Below are positions 6,606-56,026 of a stretch of DNA of 56,026 nt, piece after piece. The translations under genes and the position numbers were made by a program. The stretch's first letter is position 1, and the number at the start of each line of letters is the position of its first letter. The notes under the pieces are model-generated. The model was not told the DNA's origin. It did not search any database and saw only the letters and a program-made list of their open reading frames with translations. Source of the DNA: Bacillota bacterium (GTDB lineage Bacteria; Bacillota_I; Bacilli_A; RF39; UBA660); the NCBI GenBank assembly GCA_015059375.1, contig SVAN01000005.1, positions 1 to 56,026 of the forward strand. The letters are read 5' to 3'.

Positions 6606-7134
6606 GTGTCCAACCAAATCTTAGTACATCATATGTAATTGAGCTTCTGCCAATATATTGTGATGCATATTCTTCACTAATAGATAAAAAATCAATCGCA
6701 TTACCTAAAACTCCGCGATCTAATACTATTGCATATACTGGAGTCGTAGATATTCTATCAGAATTAAAACGTATAATAGTCCCACATGGTAAATTAGCAC
6801 TGGAAGCAACTATGTTAACAATTCCATATTCATCATCTGGATAAGTAATTGTCCCATCTTTAATATTATAATTACTCATACAAGCTAAATGCCCAGTACA
6901 AAGTGGACAATTATAAGCATATCCTGTAAGATCGCCAGTAAATGTATCTTTAGCACCATACAAAGCATCATAGTTAAATTCAGATATTTTTAATGCCATC
7001 GTTGATACATTAACCGCTTTATTTAAATTATTATTATTAACATTGGCTTCAATAACTTCATTATTCGAAGAACTAATTATTACAATAAATACTAACATCA
7101 AGGTTTTACATAACTTAAATATTACTTTTCTCAT
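6595..7134 (-). CDS. Exported 3D-domain-like (YabE/Sps-like) putative cell-wall protein
   Basis: N-terminal signal or anchor; LTGY, LPCGT, VLDRG and NAIDFL resemble 3D-domain motifs; occupies the yabE position between tatD and rsmA. Confidence 0.6.
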   Translation of the reverse strand: MRKVIFKLCKTLMLVFIVIISSSNNEVIEANVNNNNLNKAVNVSTMALKISEFNYDALYGAKDTFTGDLTGYAYNCPLCTGHLACMSNYNIKDGTITYPDDEYGIVNIVASSANLPCGTIIRFNSDRISTTPVYAIVLDRGVLGNAIDFLSISEEYASQYIGRSSITYDVLRFGWTHES

Positions 7135-50345: not shown

Positions 50346-52832
50346 ATGAACTTTATAAAAAAATTATTAGATACCGAATATAAAGAATTAAAGAGATTTG
50401 AAAAAATTGCTGATCAAATAGAAGCTCTATCTGATGAAATGACTAAACTAAAAGATGGAGATTTTAAGCAAAAGACTGAAGAATTTAAAAATAAAATTCA
50501 TAATGGTCTAAATATAGATGATGTATTGGTTCCGGCAATGGCATTAGCCCGTGAGGCTTGTTTTAGGGGAATTGGAGAAAAACCTTATCGTGTACAAATT
50601 CTTGGCGCGTTAGCTATTTATTTTGGTAATATTGCTGAAATGAAAACGGGAGAAGGTAAGACTTTAACGACTGTCTTGGCGGCATATGTAAATTCTCTTT
50701 CAGATAAGGGAGTACATGTTGTTACTACCAATGAATATTTATCACAAAGAAATGCAGAGTGGATGCGGCCAATATATGATCTTTTGGGAATTTCTGTTGG
50801 TATAAATCTTCGGGAGTTAAGCGCTAAAGAAAAAAGAGAAGTTTATAATTGTGATATAACTTATTCAACAAACAATGAAATAGGATTTGATTATTTACGA
50901 GATAATATGGTTGTAAGTAAGGAAGACCGTGTCCAAAGACCACTAAATTTTTGTATTATTGACGAGGTAGATTCAATTCTTATTGACGAAGCGCGTACAC
51001 CATTAATTATTAGTGGTGGGCAAATGCAATCTCAAAATTTATATTTAGATGCAAATCGAGCTGTTCAAAGGCTAAAAGAAGATGAAGATTACACTGTTGA
51101 TGCCAAAACAAAGAGTGTATCTTTAACTGAAGAAGGTAGCAAAAAAGTAGAAAAGATATTAAATATTAAAAATCTTTATGATATTGATAACTCCGTAATG
51201 GTGCACCATTTGAGCCAAGCTTTAAAGGCTAATTATGGATTTGCAAAAGATGTTGATTACGTTGTAGAAAATAATGAAGTTATTATAGTTGACCAGTTTA
51301 CGGGAAGACTTATGCATGGTCGACAATATTCTGAAGGCCTGCATCAAGCTATTGAAGCTAAGGAAGGCGTTAAAATCAATGCTGAAACCAGAACAATGGC
51401 AACAATTACATTTCAAAATCTTTTTAGAATGTACAATAAACTTTCTGGGATGACAGGAACGGCCAAGACTGAAGAAGAAGAATTTAGAAATATCTATAAT
51501 ATGTATGTTATAAGCATTCCAACAAATCGGCCAGTTGTTCGAGATGATATGGCTGACTTGGTTTATGCAAACATTAAAGGCAAATATAAAGCTATTATTC
51601 AAACTGTCAAAGCTATCCATGAAAAAGGCCAACCAATTTTAATTGGAACGATTTCTGTTGAATCAAACGAATATTTAAGTAATTTATTAAAAAAAGCTGG
51701 TTTAAAACACGAAGTATTAAATGCTAAAAATCACGAACGTGAGGCAGAGATTATAGCTAAAGCCGGCGAAAAAGGCGCTATTACTTTAGCTACTAATATG
51801 GCGGGCCGTGGAACAGACATTAAATTAGGAGAAGGTGTAAAAGAGCTAGGTGGTCTATGTGTTATTGGTACAGAAAGACATGAATCGAGAAGAATTGATA
51901 ATCAATTACGCGGTCGTGCCGGTCGTCAAGGGGATCCTGGCATGAGCCAATTTTTTGTTTCTTTTGAAGATGATTTAATGAGACGTTTTGGCACCGATAG
52001 AATCAGAACTATGCTAAAATCACTAGGCATTGAAGAAGAAATGGCCATTCGTAGTAAAACATTAACAAAGAGCATTGAGACTGCTCAAAAAAGAGTCGAG
52101 GGGAATAATTATGATATTCGTAAAAGTCTATTAGATTATGATAATGTTTTGAATGAGCAACGAGAAATCATCTATTCCCGTCGTAATGAGATCATTGACG
52201 AAGCTGATATTCACGAAAAAACTTTAGAAACTTTTAGAAATACAATTATTAATTTGTGTGATTCTCATCTAGCTCCTGAGGGATATTTAACAGATTTTGA
52301 TAAAAGTGAGATAGTTGAATATATAAATACAAATTATCTTAAAAACAAGAACTTAAAAGTTTCGGATATTAAAGATTTAAAGGATGAAGCGATAGCGGAA
52401 ACTATATCGAACATGGTAATAAAAGAATATGAAGAGAAAGTAAGAGATTTACCAGTACGAGTTGAGTTTGAAAAAGCTATATCATTAAGAGTAATTGATT
52501 CCAATTGGGTTGAACATATGAATACAATGGAACATCTTAAAGAAGGAATTGGATTGCGTAGTTATAGCCAAACCAGTCCGGTTCAAGCGTATACCATGGA
52601 AGGCTATGAACTTTTTGATAATTTATTAAATAAAATTGATTCTGATATAACGACTTTTTTGTTAAAAGCTGAGATTAGACAAAATGTTGAAAGAAAGCAA
52701 ACTCTAAAAGGACATGCTAACGATGGAAAAGAAACGGTAAAAAGTTCTCCAAAACGAGTTCAAAAAGTAGGCCGAAATGATGCTTGTCCATGTGGGAGCG
52801 GCCGTAAGTTCAAGCAATGTTGTGGAAAATAA
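50346..52832 (+). CDS. secA: Preprotein translocase subunit SecA
   Basis: EMKTGEGKT, DEVDSILIDEARTPLIIS, ATNMAGRGTDI, QLRGRAGRQGDPG and C-terminal SEC-C CPCGSGRKFKQCC motifs. Confidence 0.99.
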   Translation: MNFIKKLLDTEYKELKRFEKIADQIEALSDEMTKLKDGDFKQKTEEFKNKIHNGLNIDDVLVPAMALAREACFRGIGEKPYRVQILGALAIYFGNIAEMKTGEGKTLTTVLAAYVNSLSDKGVHVVTTNEYLSQRNAEWMRPIYDLLGISVGINLRELSAKEKREVYNCDITYSTNNEIGFDYLRDNMVVSKEDRVQRPLNFCIIDEVDSILIDEARTPLIISGGQMQSQNLYLDANRAVQRLKEDEDYTVDAKTKSVSLTEEGSKKVEKILNIKNLYDIDNSVMVHHLSQALKANYGFAKDVDYVVENNEVIIVDQFTGRLMHGRQYSEGLHQAIEAKEGVKINAETRTMATITFQNLFRMYNKLSGMTGTAKTEEEEFRNIYNMYVISIPTNRPVVRDDMADLVYANIKGKYKAIIQTVKAIHEKGQPILIGTISVESNEYLSNLLKKAGLKHEVLNAKNHEREAEIIAKAGEKGAITLATNMAGRGTDIKLGEGVKELGGLCVIGTERHESRRIDNQLRGRAGRQGDPGMSQFFVSFEDDLMRRFGTDRIRTMLKSLGIEEEMAIRSKTLTKSIETAQKRVEGNNYDIRKSLLDYDNVLNEQREIIYSRRNEIIDEADIHEKTLETFRNTIINLCDSHLAPEGYLTDFDKSEIVEYINTNYLKNKNLKVSDIKDLKDEAIAETISNMVIKEYEEKVRDLPVRVEFEKAISLRVIDSNWVEHMNTMEHLKEGIGLRSYSQTSPVQAYTMEGYELFDNLLNKIDSDITTFLLKAEIRQNVERKQTLKGHANDGKETVKSSPKRVQKVGRNDACPCGSGRKFKQCCGK
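52788..52832 (+). repeat. secA 3-prime tail copy 1 (in use); putative attL of cassette A
   Basis: CCA TGT GGG AGC GGC CGT AAG TTC AAG CAA TGT TGT GGA AAA TAA = PCGSGRKFKQCCGK*. Confidence 0.9.
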
Positions 52833-52874
52833 ACTCGGAAACCCAAGTAAATAAAGGGAAAAACCGAGTTTTTT
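52831..52874 (+). terminator. Terminator after secA tail copy 1
   Basis: AAACTCGG...CCGAGTTT stem with a T run. Confidence 0.7.
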
Positions 52875-52914
52875 CTATTACATAAAAATGGTAATTTTTA
52901 ACGAAATTTTCACC

Positions 52915-52934
52915 TTAGATAAGTTTTAGATAAG
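52915..52934 (+). repeat. Cassette A left tandem repeats (11-bp period)
   Basis: TTAGATAAG-TT-TTAGATAAG. Confidence 0.85.
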
Positions 52935-53053
52935 CTGAATATGATTTTATCGTATTTAATAAATATAAATTTAATCAAAATAGTATGATTTTTCCGTAAT
53001 ATATGTAAAAAATAAGTAAAAAAATATGTTATAATATGTATGGAGGTCAAATT

Positions 53054-53392
53054 ATGGAAGATAAAGAACTTATAGCTAATAAATTAGGTTTTGAGTCTAG
53101 TGATGAAATGGAAGCTTATTATGATTTATGTAGAGGTCATTTTGAAGACGATACAATAATGACTAAAGATTTATGTGAAAAACATGTTAAAGGTTATGGA
53201 TTAGACAAATTTTTGCATGTACCAAGAGAGGAAAGATTAGAAGGAAAAATTTACTATGATTTTGGTGGTTTAGTTGAATGTGTAAAATTAGGAGATGCAG
53301 AAAGGGCGCAATACCTTAAAAATCTAGTAGATTCTCAATTATCTGAATTAGACAAATGTTATACTGTTCAGGCTCAAAAATCAATGAAATAA
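53054..53392 (+). CDS. Hypothetical protein (cassette A cargo), 112 aa
   Basis: ORF with GGAGG RBS and extended -10 TGTTATAAT (53027-53035); no family recognised. Confidence 0.75.
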   Translation: MEDKELIANKLGFESSDEMEAYYDLCRGHFEDDTIMTKDLCEKHVKGYGLDKFLHVPREERLEGKIYYDFGGLVECVKLGDAERAQYLKNLVDSQLSELDKCYTVQAQKSMK

Positions 53393-53405
53393 AAAAGCAG
53401 TTTTT

Positions 53406-53426
53406 TTAGATAAGTTAATAGGTAAG
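53406..53426 (+). repeat. Cassette A right tandem repeats (12-bp period)
   Basis: TTAGATAAG-TTA-ATAGGTAAG, 13 nt after the cargo stop. Confidence 0.8.
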
Positions 53427-53516
53427 TTGTATGAATTTAGTTGCAATTTATTACAAATATTAAAGAATATAATGCAAAATTAAAGCAATTTGTTACATAA
53501 AAATTGCAATATGTTA

Positions 53517-53561
53517 CCATGTGGCTCTGGTAAAAAATATAAACAATGTTGTGGCAAATAG
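53517..53561 (+). repeat. secA 3-prime tail copy 2 (orphan); A/B junction
   Basis: CCA TGT GGC TCT GGT AAA AAA TAT AAA CAA TGT TGT GGC AAA TAG = PCGSGKKYKQCCGK*; in-frame stop upstream at 53481. Confidence 0.9.
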
Positions 53562-53567
53562 CCTCGT

Positions 53568-53602
53568 AAGCCTAGGAAATATAAGGATTCCTGGGCTTTT
53601 TG
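53568..53602 (+). terminator. Terminator after secA tail copy 2
   Basis: AAGCCTAGGAA...TTCCTGGGCTT followed by a T run. Confidence 0.7.
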
Positions 53603-53640
53603 TTTTTTAAAAAAGTTGTCTTTTTCTTCAAAAATAGCCT

Positions 53641-53678
53641 CTACATACGTTTTACATACGTATATAAAACGTATGTAG
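53641..53678 (+). repeat. Cassette B left repeats (11-bp period) plus an inverted third copy
   Basis: CTACATACG-TT-TTACATACG; 14-bp inverted repeat CTACATACGTTTTA (53641) / TAAAACGTATGTAG (53665). Confidence 0.85.
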
Positions 53679-53798
53679 GCAATATTTCAAGATAAACAAT
53701 CTCTTTATTTATAAGGATTTATGAGTAAAGTGATCCGTGTCCTTTTAGTTCTTTACAAATGCTATAAAAATTCATGATATAATATTAATGAGAAAAAG

Positions 53799-54560
53799 GT
53801 GTATTTTGTGTCAAATTTTACTAATGAATTTTTAAAATATTATTTAACAAATCCACTAATAATAACAATATTAATATTAGGTTTAATATCAGCAATTTTT
53901 TATAAACAGATAGTTGGATGGTTTGGAGAGCATTGGACTAAAAAAGCTTTAAGAAAATTACCTAAAGCTAAATATAAAATTATAAATAATTTGTTTTTAT
54001 CAGTTAATGGATTGACTCATCAAATAGATCATGTAGTAGTTTCTCCATATGGAATATTTTCTATAGAAACAAAACAATATAATGGTTACATAACAGGAAG
54101 TAAATATGATAAAAACTGGGTAAGACATGCTGGAAAAAATAAATACTATTATATGAATCCTATTAGACAAAATTATGGACATTGCAAAGCATTAGCTGAA
54201 TTATTAAATATAGACGAATCAAAATTATATAATATAGTATGTATTCCAAGTAATGCAAAATTAAAAATAGAACATGACGGGGAACTTGTAAGATATGATA
54301 CTATTGTTAATAAAATAAAATCTTATAATGAAGAAATAATTAATAATGTTAGTGAATTATATGATAAATTATTAAAGAGTAATGTGAAAGACAAAAAAAT
54401 AAAAAAAGAACATATTGAAAACATAAAAACTAATATTGAGAAAAAAGATATTAGTAAATGTCCTAAATGTGGAGGAACGTTAGTTGAACGTGAAAGTAAG
54501 TATGGGAAATTTATTGGATGTGCTAATTATCCTAGGTGTAAGTACACTCAAAAAAAATAA
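53799..54560 (+). CDS. NERD-domain protein with N-terminal TM helix and C-terminal topoisomerase-type C4 zinc finger (cassette B cargo)
   Basis: G.FGE, QIDHVVV...GIF.IETK NERD motifs; CPKCGG.L..R...YG.F.GC.NYP.C; extended -10 TGATATAAT at 53775. Confidence 0.88.
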   Translation: MYFVSNFTNEFLKYYLTNPLIITILILGLISAIFYKQIVGWFGEHWTKKALRKLPKAKYKIINNLFLSVNGLTHQIDHVVVSPYGIFSIETKQYNGYITGSKYDKNWVRHAGKNKYYYMNPIRQNYGHCKALAELLNIDESKLYNIVCIPSNAKLKIEHDGELVRYDTIVNKIKSYNEEIINNVSELYDKLLKSNVKDKKIKKEHIENIKTNIEKKDISKCPKCGGTLVERESKYGKFIGCANYPRCKYTQKK

Positions 54561-54563
54561 ATT

Positions 54564-54584
54564 CTACATACGATTTTACATACA
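54564..54584 (+). repeat. Cassette B right tandem repeats (12-bp period)
   Basis: CTACATACG-ATT-TTACATACA, 3 nt after the cargo stop. Confidence 0.85.
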
Positions 54585-54691
54585 AATTGGTAGCGTTCTC
54601 GAGTGCTCTCAAACTTTCTCAAAAGTCCATTTATGAGGTTTTATAAAGGTTTTAAAGCCTACTAAAGTCTCGAAAGTTCGAAAAATCGCAT

Positions 54692-54736
54692 CCATGTGGC
54701 AACGGTAAGAAATACAAGCGATGTTGTGGAAAGTAA
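54692..54736 (+). repeat. secA 3-prime tail copy 3 (orphan); B/C junction
   Basis: CCA TGT GGC AAC GGT AAG AAA TAC AAG CGA TGT TGT GGA AAG TAA = PCGNGKKYKRCCGK*; in-frame stop upstream at 54653. Confidence 0.9.
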
Positions 54737-54791
54737 GTAATATCAAGGCTTTTAGAAGATTGATGAATGAAGAAAAGTGAAAAATCGTGAA

Positions 54792-54811
54792 TTAGATACC
54801 ATTTAGATACC
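54792..54811 (+). repeat. Cassette C left tandem repeats (11-bp period)
   Basis: TTAGATACC-AT-TTAGATACC. Confidence 0.85.
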
Positions 54812-54826
54812 CTAAAATAGTAAATG

Positions 54827-54851
54827 AAAAGACCCAAATGGGTCTTTTTTT
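54827..54851 (+). terminator. Terminator-like hairpin ahead of the cassette C promoter
   Basis: AAAAGACCC-AAAT-GGGTCTTTT-TTT, followed by TGATATAAT (54851-54859). Confidence 0.6.
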
Positions 54852-54880
54852 GATATAATGAATATAAAGGTGTAATGTAA

Positions 54881-55624
54881 ATGAATGGGTATATTAATTT
54901 AGATGAAAAGAACATTGATGAAGAACATATTTGTTGTGCAATTGGAGATCCTAAACATCAAGACGGTGTAGATAAAAAGAAAGAATGGATTAAAAATAAA
55001 TTAAAAGATGGGCATGTATTTAGAAAACTAAATACTAGAGGTAAAATCTTTATTGAATACGAACCAATAGAAACAGCTTGGGTTCCTATCAATGGTAAAA
55101 ACTATATGCATATTTATTGTTTATGGGTAGCAGGCAGTTTTAAAGGAAAAGGTATTGGTAAAGAATTATTAGAATATGCTATTGAAGATGCTAAAAAGAA
55201 AAAAATGAGTGGAGTTTGTACAATAGTTACACAAAAGAAAAAACCATTTATTGGAGATAAGAAATTCTTTGAACATTATGGATTTAAGGTAATAGATACA
55301 ATTAACGACTATGAATTAATGGCATTACAATTTGATGATAAAGAAACTCCTGAGTTTAGTGATACAGCACGTAAGATGGAAATCGAAAGTCAAGATTTCA
55401 CTATTTATTATTCAAATGAATGTCCCTATGTAGAATATGAAGTAAAGGAATTATCTGGCTATGCTAAAGATAAAGGAATTGAATTGAACTTCATAAAAAT
55501 AGATTCGTTAGAGAAAGCAAAAAATGCACCATGCGTATTTAACAACTGGGCTAACTTTTATAAAGGAAAATTTGTTTCAAATACAATCTTAAACGCTAAT
55601 GCATTTGAAAAATTATTAAAATAG
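54881..55624 (+). CDS. YoaP-domain GNAT family N-acetyltransferase (cassette C cargo)
   Basis: NI..EHICCAI, GK.FIEY.P.E.AW, CLWV.GSFKGKGIG, QCPY-like ECPY and A.NAP...N.WA.FY.GKF motifs. Confidence 0.85.
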   Translation: MNGYINLDEKNIDEEHICCAIGDPKHQDGVDKKKEWIKNKLKDGHVFRKLNTRGKIFIEYEPIETAWVPINGKNYMHIYCLWVAGSFKGKGIGKELLEYAIEDAKKKKMSGVCTIVTQKKKPFIGDKKFFEHYGFKVIDTINDYELMALQFDDKETPEFSDTARKMEIESQDFTIYYSNECPYVEYEVKELSGYAKDKGIELNFIKIDSLEKAKNAPCVFNNWANFYKGKFVSNTILNANAFEKLLK

Positions 55625-55628
55625 ATTA

Positions 55629-55682
55629 TTAGATACCTTTTTGGATACCTTCCGGTGAGTATTTAAAAGATATCTAGATACC
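55629..55682 (+). repeat. Cassette C right repeats (12-bp period) plus a third copy
   Basis: TTAGATACC-TTT-TTGGATACC, 4 nt after the cargo stop; CTAGATACC at 55674. Confidence 0.8.
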
Positions 55683-55904
55683 TTTTTTTGAAGTGAAAAT
55701 ACAAAAATTTTGTATCGTTAAAAATGCAAGGTTTCTTTTATTTATAAAGAATTACGAAGATTTTGATGATAAAAAAAGATTAAATTGTGTCCACTGCCAT
55801 TGATATTTTAAACCCTCATTTTTTTAATAAAAACACGTAGTTTTATGTTATAATAAATAATGAAAGAGGAGATAAAAAGGTGGATATTTATTAGGAGGGA
55901 AAAT

Positions 55905-56026
55905 ATGATAAGTACAAGTAGTCATAATGATTGGCAGTCAGATAAATATAGAACCTATTCTATCTCTGGTAATCGCGGAAAAGATGCTAACTATCAAGGT
56001 AAATGTTATCCTGAATTAGCACCTAA
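55905..56026 (+). CDS. Partial CDS, possibly DUF488-related, truncated by the window end
   Basis: AGGAGG RBS, extended -10 TGTTATAAT (55846-55854); MISTSSHNDWQSDKYRTYSISGNRGKDANYQGKCYPELAP. Confidence 0.5.
   Translation, partial: MISTSSHNDWQSDKYRTYSISGNRGKDANYQGKCYPELAP

Follow-up and report, generated by a model that had tools for sequence, protein, structure and literature searches.

Paired direct repeats around integrase-less cassettes at the secA 3' end as putative arm-type sites of several phage integrases

Downstream of secA in a bacterium of the Bacillota (Bacilli_A; RF39; UBA660), three small gene cassettes, A, B and C, follow one another, and each is framed by its own tandem pairs of short direct repeats. 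We analysed contig SVAN01000005.1 of assembly GCA_015059375.1 over its whole length of 56,026 nucleotides (the window); the assembly amounts to 1.01 Mb, is 72% complete and has 29% GC. We read the repeat pairs as putative lambda-like arm-type sites, P' on the left and P on the right, of integrase-less miniature integrative elements, and on comparison of the sequences we hold this reading to be very probable. The attachment site in use is the tail of secA that encodes the SEC-C zinc finger. Each cassette type would be derived from, and presumably be served by, a different lineage of temperate-phage tyrosine integrase.

Results

Paired repeats of the three cassettes

Motifs were located by script, and the stretch from 52000 to 56026 was read. 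We define a core as the sequence from CCATGTGG up to and including the stop codon. The coding end of the SecA C-terminal zinc finger exists in three copies in the whole genome (cores 1 to 3, Table 1). Each cassette has a left pair of period 11 and a right pair of period 12. The preliminary description of this contig had reported the pairs with these two spacings, and all of them were located, its coordinates being one base lower since a leading T was included. Its distances from the cores were reproduced from the core starts (127, 124 and 100 nt for the left pairs of A, B and C; 111 and 128 nt for the right pairs of A and B), and the right pairs begin, as it had noticed, just past the cargo stop codons, at 4-14 nt. 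The 8-mer of cassette B is TACATAC(G). Each of the three cassettes contains a single cargo gene and neither an integrase nor transfer genes.

In the 1.01-Mb genome there are 40 exact 8-mer pairs with a period of 11, and this density gives, by a hand estimate, a probability of about 1.4e-3 that a stretch of 35 nt contains such a pair and of about 3e-9 that all three do. No further pair of any of the three window motifs was found in the 1.01 Mb scanned. Since the motifs are unpaired elsewhere and the pair density is low, chance does not account for the pairs: they are real, and chance is excluded as their origin. Likewise, the degenerate motif pair put forward in the preliminary description is not common genome-wide, as it has 16 matches, of which 6 are the six pairs described here.

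Prophages and integrases at the same site

We scanned viral contigs with the right-end pattern and found two prophages inserted at the 3' end of secA, G345 (40 kb) and G346 (35 kb), with the words TAGATACC and TAGATACG, respectively. Both have a left pair of period 11 and a right pair of period 12, about 125 nt from the core, and a 373-376-aa integrase beside the left pair. In G345, secA is followed by the core, a terminator and two copies of TTTAGATACC (period 11); 35 nt past this pair lies the stop codon of the 376-aa integrase, encoded on the opposite strand, and then come the phage genes. The right side consists of two copies of TTTAGATACCTT (period 12), a spacer of ~115 nt and a second core. 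G346 is built on the same plan with TAGATACG. These prophages, carrying the same pairs in the same geometry, support the proposal of the preliminary description that the pairs are arm-type sites of tyrosine integrases.

The G345 integrase was used as a query against 401 genomes of the family, a viral collection and a metagenome collection. Every relative at least 49% identical to it has a tandem pair just past its stop codon, and most adjoin a secA core. The arm word is TAGATACC at the integrase loci L211, L213, L214 and L218, as in prophage G345; TAGATAAG at L219, L205 and L222; TAGATACG at L204, L215, L250 and L251, as in prophage G346; TACATACG at L252; TAGATACA at L255; TAGAACCA at L221; TAGATCCA or TAGATCAA at L223-L225; and GGAGCCA at L220. 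At least eight repeat variants, all three window words included, thus stand beside distinct integrase lineages. Integrases with distinct variants share the secA-tail crossover site, which bears out the idea of several related integrases on one bacterial attachment site (attB). The metagenome scan added few close integrases, one of which is the TACATACG partner at L252; its arm, TCTACATACGTTTTACATACGT, equals the left arm of cassette B letter for letter. More distant integrases of the same family with other targets keep the related words TTAGGTxx and TTATGTAAC 0-100 nt from the integrase stop; beside these, the one on contig C21 of this genome included, no secA core was detected. Among partial viral records (L212-L215), no right pair and hence no attachment site of a free phage (attP) was seen.

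In the structural model of the G345 integrase (mean predicted local distance difference test score, pLDDT, 82), three beta strands and a helix over residues 3-57 (pLDDT 83-90) precede the core-binding and catalytic domains, with the integrase of Tn1549 and the full-length one of lambda as the best matches in the PDB. The N terminus is therefore predicted to adopt an arm-binding fold, as expected. Pfam matched the catalytic domain alone in this protein and gave no match to the arm-binding domain model.

Recurrence of the layout in relatives

The layout is widespread in a large family of uncultured Bacilli from gut and rumen with genomes of ~1 Mb, in records labelled as uncultured gut or rumen Bacilli, Mollicutes, "Erysipelotrichaceae" metagenome-assembled genomes, Clostridium sp. 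CAG:710 and CAG:914. A strict secA-tail core pattern matches 197 of 301 family genomes, many of which have 2-6 tandem cores 3' of secA; the complete genome G169 has six cores over 42 kb from secA to prfB. Assemblies of the same genus mostly have a contig end 0-4 kb past secA, probably caused by the repeated cores and strain-variable cassettes. Those that continue always have a period-11 pair 103-123 nt after the core, with a word that varies among the genomes (TAGATCCA, TAGATACC, TAGATAAG, TGTTTGYAA or AAAATGTGC).

We compared the two ends of 65 non-redundant cassettes (0.7-6.8 kb) that have a core on either side. The left and right pairs share at least 7 nt in 49 of them vs 5 of 300 random site pairs. 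Among the 37 typed cassettes, 35 have periods of 11 on the left and 12 on the right, and 34 have an identical 8-mer on both sides; with shuffled partners the latter number was 11.0 +/- 2.5 and at most 21 over 2000 shuffles. The modal distance between pair and core is 127 nt on the left and right alike. Left ends of the TAGAT type follow a core in 65 of 401 genomes, representing 58 of 214 genera (none with a reversed-pattern control), whereas secA-clade integrases occur in about 10 of the 401 genomes, a ratio expected of non-autonomous elements that use passing helpers. The cassettes are compact and uniform (0.7-3 kb). The right-end pattern matched once outside the family, in [Eubacterium] infirmum NCTC12940 (L082, 1136001-1144000), which is either a true cassette or a chance match.

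Movement of single cassettes between genera

Individual cassettes from different genera show 97-100% identity, while their flanks are 54-68% identical. The 962-bp cassette shared by G064 and G231, two genomes of different genera, shows 100% identity over 917 nt, with an upstream secA sequence of 68% and a downstream sequence of 58% identity. The identity starts at CCTTGTGG of the first core and stops after or within CCTTGTGGAAGTGG of the next one. Likewise, the cassette of L106 and L179 is 98.9% identical with flanks of 65% and 59%, and the identity is bounded by cores. The aligned junctions of the transferred cassettes map the crossover in these relatives within or next to CCWTGTGG. The contrast between the cassettes and their diverged flanks indicates that single cassettes moved recently as discrete units via recombination at the core, bringing a SecA tail with them.

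Among 120 loci with TAGAT-type right ends, we inspected 80 (L081-L160); directly 5' of the right pair, none of them contains an integrase or a fragment of one. Where integrases were matched in these 80 loci, they are of a 423-aa family and located past the next core or a long way upstream. Cassettes adjoin integrase-bearing elements in the arrays of G236, G169 and G033. No deletion intermediates derived from an autonomous element were seen.

Proposed mechanism and points against it

According to the arm-site reading, the units would have entered by site-specific recombination at CCWTGTGG, which lies in the Pro-Cys-Gly codons of the SecA C-terminal zinc finger. A unit starts with the crossover word, followed by its own version of the last ~12 secA codons, stop codon and terminator and, ~100-127 nt from the core, the period-11 direct pair of 8-9-nt words. 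The cargo gene, apparently with its own promoter, comes next and then the period-12 pair past the stop codon, a spacer of ~110-128 nt and the next core. The codons to the right of the crossover in core 1 would come from cassette A, and the hairpin behind secA is read as a terminator that arrived with cassette A. In the excised circle, the right pair, core and left pair would form an attP of ~270 bp. The words would differ between cassettes because separate integrase lineages with a common secA core each have their own arm word. The integrase N-domain would bind these words, whose variable positions 6-8 would set the specificity, and the asymmetry between periods 11 and 12 may mark the two arms as different. 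Movement would take place either in trans or, after accretion, by excision together with a prophage of like arm type next to the cassette; small cassettes would be in keeping with the latter route too.

Several observations weigh against this scheme. We found no cognate secA-clade integrase in this genome, of which the assembly is 72% complete, and no intact core 3' of cassette C. The second right-hand copy has one mismatch in both cassettes A and C. Integrases with the same arm word are 67-91% identical in the N-domain and those with different words up to 68%, without separation, and no single N-domain residue tracks the repeat variant perfectly. We tried a simple code based on the residue (V, T, I, Q or N) that precedes the conserved SKK motif and rejected it since it tracks the variant imperfectly. 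As a check, the preliminary description had proposed to identify secA-associated integrases and to test whether their arm-binding domains co-vary with the repeats; such integrases exist with their own variants, in favour of its reading, and co-variation was not seen at the level of overall N-domain identity. Variants are also mixed in a few cassettes, such as L159 and L125 (left ACC, right AAG); the left and right words differ in 3 of the 37 typed cassettes; and the cassette transferred between G064 and G231 has a mixed ACG/AAG right pair. The specificity of the integrases for the words may thus be loose. Moreover, the TAGAT-type scan pattern required a right-pair period of 12, so that only arrays found through cores alone are unbiased for the right-hand period; in those arrays it is 12 almost without exception.

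Alternative explanations

The same observations could be taken to mean that the cassettes are dead relics, immobile remains of prophages that decayed in place and left fossil arm sites. The lack of a cognate integrase in this genome, the mismatched right-hand copies, the end of the array without a core or arms over the 2.3 kb from cassette C to prfB and the several relatives with one core in the 8-10 kb between secA and prfB would all suit such decay, which we nevertheless consider unlikely. Decay in place is at odds with the near-identity of cassettes across genera within diverged flanks, bounded by cores in both aligned pairs, and with the agreement of left and right words in 34 of 37 cassettes. 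It would also have to explain the compact, uniform build and the absence of any integrase remnant immediately upstream of a TAGAT-type right pair in the 80 loci.

There is little to recommend, but something to weigh in, a second alternative, in which the pairs bind an accessory protein of the helper phage (an excisionase or recombination directionality factor) or a host DNA-bending protein instead of the integrase N-domain. The excisionase (Xis) sites of lambda are short tandem direct repeats about one helical turn apart, as here, and they lie on one arm only, whereas the pairs at secA are on both arms, symmetric at ~127 nt. If each phage lineage had its own excisionase, the word could equally track the lineage and not the integrase, and the N-domain identities, which do not follow the variant, would raise no difficulty. 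Against this stand the predicted arm-binding fold of the integrase and the distant integrases of the same family, which have other targets and yet keep a pair of a related word near their stop codons.

That the pairs are transcription-factor operators controlling the cargo is largely refuted and highly improbable: although the left pairs lie upstream of the cargo promoters (a TGnTATAAT-like -10 element was read by eye ahead of each cargo gene) and the left pair of cassette A is overlapped by one match to a promoter-like consensus, the genome has no further pairs of these motifs, no cassette encodes a regulator, each word returns past the stop codon with a fixed spacing to the core that follows, prophages are flanked by the same pairs beside their integrases, and a promoter scan, uninformative in such AT-rich DNA, was no better than with shuffled sequence (24 sites vs 23.1 +/- 4.1).

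With the arm-site reading preferred, a wider picture is possible, and we put it forward tentatively, as one that we would rather doubt than assume. The secA tail might be an active, integron-like gene-capture platform of lambda-type sites, where single-gene cassettes with a miniature attP and a spare SecA tail would be served by a panel of at least eight phage integrases, a code in positions 6-8 would prevent cross-action, and cassettes would be taken or left singly by a passing phage.

Other features of the window and other integrases

The features of the window are collected in Table 1. The 112-aa cargo protein of cassette A has no match in Pfam, PADLOC or PHROGs. In cassette B, the left pair and an inverted third copy (53669-53678) can fold into a 17-bp hairpin (53641-53678), which a terminator scan detected on the minus strand. 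The second right-hand copy of cassette C, TGGATACC at 55642, recurs as the second copy of TAGATACC pairs in G230, L096, L098 and L125. Several of these cassettes are unrelated, and the word has the appearance of a conserved variant of the second site, not of random decay. Words related to ATTACATAAAAATGGTAAT (ATTACA-N8-GGTAAT) are present at the equivalent position in many relatives, and this element may be a candidate site for an accessory DNA-bending protein. A similar word, GTTACATAAAAATTGCAAT, lies immediately 5' of core 2 at 53493-53511.

The final 127 nt of the window (55900-56026) are identical to the first 127 nt of contig C27. When the two are joined, prfB, with its frameshift site CTTTGAC, begins ~5.3 kb past the secA stop codon. 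The 2.3 kb between cassette C and prfB contain a 217-aa gene, a small open reading frame and a gene for a 232-aa membrane protein; neither arms nor cores were found in this interval.

Table 1. Features of the window around the three cassettes.
Feature	Position	Strand	Description
secA	50346..52832	+	last 45 nt are core 1, encoding the SEC-C zinc-finger tail PCGSGRKFKQCCGK
Core 1	52788..52832	+	CCATGTGG...TGTTGTGGAAAATAA
Hairpin and T-run	52835..52874	+	3' of the secA stop codon
Palindrome-ended element	52877..52895	+	ATTACATAAAAATGGTAAT; between the presumed terminator and the left pair of cassette A
Cassette A, left pair (putative P' arm)	52915..52934	+	TTAGATAAG twice, period 11; 127 nt from the start of core 1
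Cassette A, left 8-mer	52916, 52927		TAGATAAG, period 11
Cassette A, cargo	53054..53392	+	112-aa protein
Cassette A, right pair (putative P arm)	53406..53426	+	TTAGATAAG and ATAGGTAAG, period 12; 111 nt before core 2
Cassette A, right 8-mers	53407, 53419		TAGATAAG and TAGgTAAG, period 12
Core 2	53517..53561	+	displaced secA tail (PCGSGKKYKQCCGK, then stop); boundary of cassettes A and B
Cassette B, left pair	53640..53678	+	TCTACATACGT and TTTACATACGT, period 11; 124 nt from core 2
Cassette B, left word	53642, 53653		TACATAC, period 11; inverted copy at 53671-53677
Cassette B, cargo	53799..54560	+	253-aa protein with NERD nuclease-related domain and Top1-type zinc ribbon
Cassette B, right pair	54563..54583	+	TCTACATAC and TTTACATAC, period 12; 128 nt before core 3
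Cassette B, right word	54565, 54577		TACATAC, period 12
Core 3	54692..54736	+	displaced secA tail (PCGNGKKYKRCCGK, then stop); boundary of cassettes B and C
Cassette C, left pair	54792..54811	+	TTAGATACC twice, period 11; 100 nt from core 3
Cassette C, left 8-mer	54793, 54804		TAGATACC, period 11
Hairpin terminator	54827-54848		3' of the left pair of cassette C
Cassette C, cargo	54881..55624	+	247-aa GNAT acetyltransferase with YoaP-like C-terminal domain
Cassette C, right arm	55629..55682	+	TTAGATACC and TTGGATACC, period 12; third copy CTAGATACC at 55674-55682
Cassette C, right 8-mers	55630, 55642		TAGATACC and TgGATACC, period 12; third direct copy at 55675
Expected downstream core of cassette C	55787..55802	.	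only TGTCCACTGCCA, containing the reverse complement of the core word TGGCAGTGG

The genome has five tyrosine recombinases, two Xer-like, one on contig C16, one on C21 and one of 320 aa, and all five were rejected as partners of the cassettes since none belongs to the secA clade. The C16 enzyme (386 aa) belongs to an element of ~16 kb at tRNA-Cys(GCA) (L004, 74640-90700) with TGATACGTTTT pairs at both ends, of period 11 at 74826 and 90548 and of period 13 at 90381, and with one full and two partial copies of the tRNA. Its layout is like that of the secA site, but it has its own integrase and a different core. The C21 integrase (L003, 5338-6760; 378 aa), with TTAGGTACG arms, is 41% identical to the secA-prophage integrase; it is followed by GTACCTAA-like words and the exact pair ATCGTACCTAA at 6744, which reads TTAGGTACGAT on the opposite strand. 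The cassette arms have a related word, but a secA core was not found beside the locus.

We also rejected other integrases of cassette-holding relatives (G252, G146, G331 and G230), whose arms AGTGTGTTTG, AATAATGGG and TGAGAGTAA differ from the words of the cassettes in the respective genomes. The same secA core is the target of another integrase family, of 423 aa and seemingly unrelated, in G002 (L048), G236, G169, G006 and G015. These integrases are encoded immediately behind the core, in the orientation of secA, and give a weak Pfam match to the arm-binding domain model. Their arm word is TGTTTGYAA, present as 2-3 direct and further inverted copies; the integrase of G169 is part of an element of 20 kb that also has ParA/ParB and a protein of 2367 aa. 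Having these arms, the family (G002 type) was rejected as the partner of TAGATA-type cassettes, even though it targets the secA core.

Discussion

Our analysis pairs arm variants with integrase lineages, tests the concordance of left and right repeats, maps the crossover at the base level and provides counter-examples to strict specificity. If the arm-site reading is true, these organisms hold a natural set of related integrases that have different arm words and one core, and the long-standing question of how the N-domain reads arm sites opens to swap experiments. The reading would also account for the exchange of single accessory genes, here including those for a NERD-domain protein and a GNAT acetyltransferase, in ~1-Mb genomes with few other mobile elements, as well as for the frequent assembly breaks just after secA. 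Full-text literature searches found no published description of secA as such an integration site.

Other systems in which small elements accumulate at one site resemble the secA array in part. Integron cassettes likewise form arrays of small, mostly single-gene, recombinase-less units at one site, served by a tyrosine recombinase in trans, as is proposed here. However, the secA cassettes have neither an attC hairpin nor a resident IntI, attI or Pc: their repeats are direct and not attC-like, no integrase lies beside the array, the cargo genes have apparent promoters of their own, and the sites are of the lambda-type core-plus-arm kind. A transposon or a miniature inverted-repeat transposable element does not fit either, as all units are at one site and bounded by direct copies of the secA tail. 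The IMEX/pdif modules moved by host XerC/XerD are also small, consist of recombination sites and cargo only and borrow their recombinase; the secA site, in contrast, is not dif-like, has arm-type pairs and implicates phage integrases rather than host Xer. Tycheposons (bioRxiv 10.1101/2020.12.28.424599) and the ssrA islands of Dehalococcoides (PMC3146451) encode their own integrases. They share with the secA array repeated integration at one gene end, older elements pushed inward, a variable island and small genomes, whereas the prevalent secA units are integrase-less and their target is a protein-coding tail that each element replaces.

Cis-mobilizable elements (CIMEs) and tandem accretion have been described with the integrative and conjugative elements (ICEs) ICESt1/ICESt3 at the 3' end of fda in Streptococcus thermophilus (PMC5704250, PMC6323972). 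CIMEs are bounded by attL and attR, lack recombination and transfer genes, are stacked behind a housekeeping gene and need a related autonomous element. In their flanking sites and gene content the integrase-less secA units fit this definition, and their arrays would fit tandem accretion. Unlike in the CIMEs, the helpers at secA appear to be temperate phages and not ICEs, and the cassettes are far smaller (0.7-3 kb), mostly of one gene, very numerous across hundreds of genera and without integrase remnants.

With lambda-type sites (P1, P2 and P'1-P'3; the integrases of Tn916/Tn1549), the secA site has in common non-core direct repeats on both sides (~150 bp) at about helical-turn spacing, an integrase with a separate N-terminal beta-sheet domain and an element that restores the 3' end of its target gene. 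Flanking tandem direct repeats were found in the window as well as in the 49 of 65 cassettes of relatives, autonomous elements at the same site (G345 and G346) encode an integrase with a predicted separate N-terminal domain, and the limits of identity from CCTTGTGG to CCTTGTGGAAGTGG agree with a short overlap region identical in attP and attB. The differences are the two symmetric pairs at ~+/-127 nt with periods of 11 and 12, the at least eight words for one attB and the units themselves, mostly integrase-less with a single cargo gene. Thus, arm-type sites and integrase-less elements flanked by attachment sites are already known; what is unusual at the secA tail is one attachment site combined with a panel of arm-word variants and mostly single-gene units.

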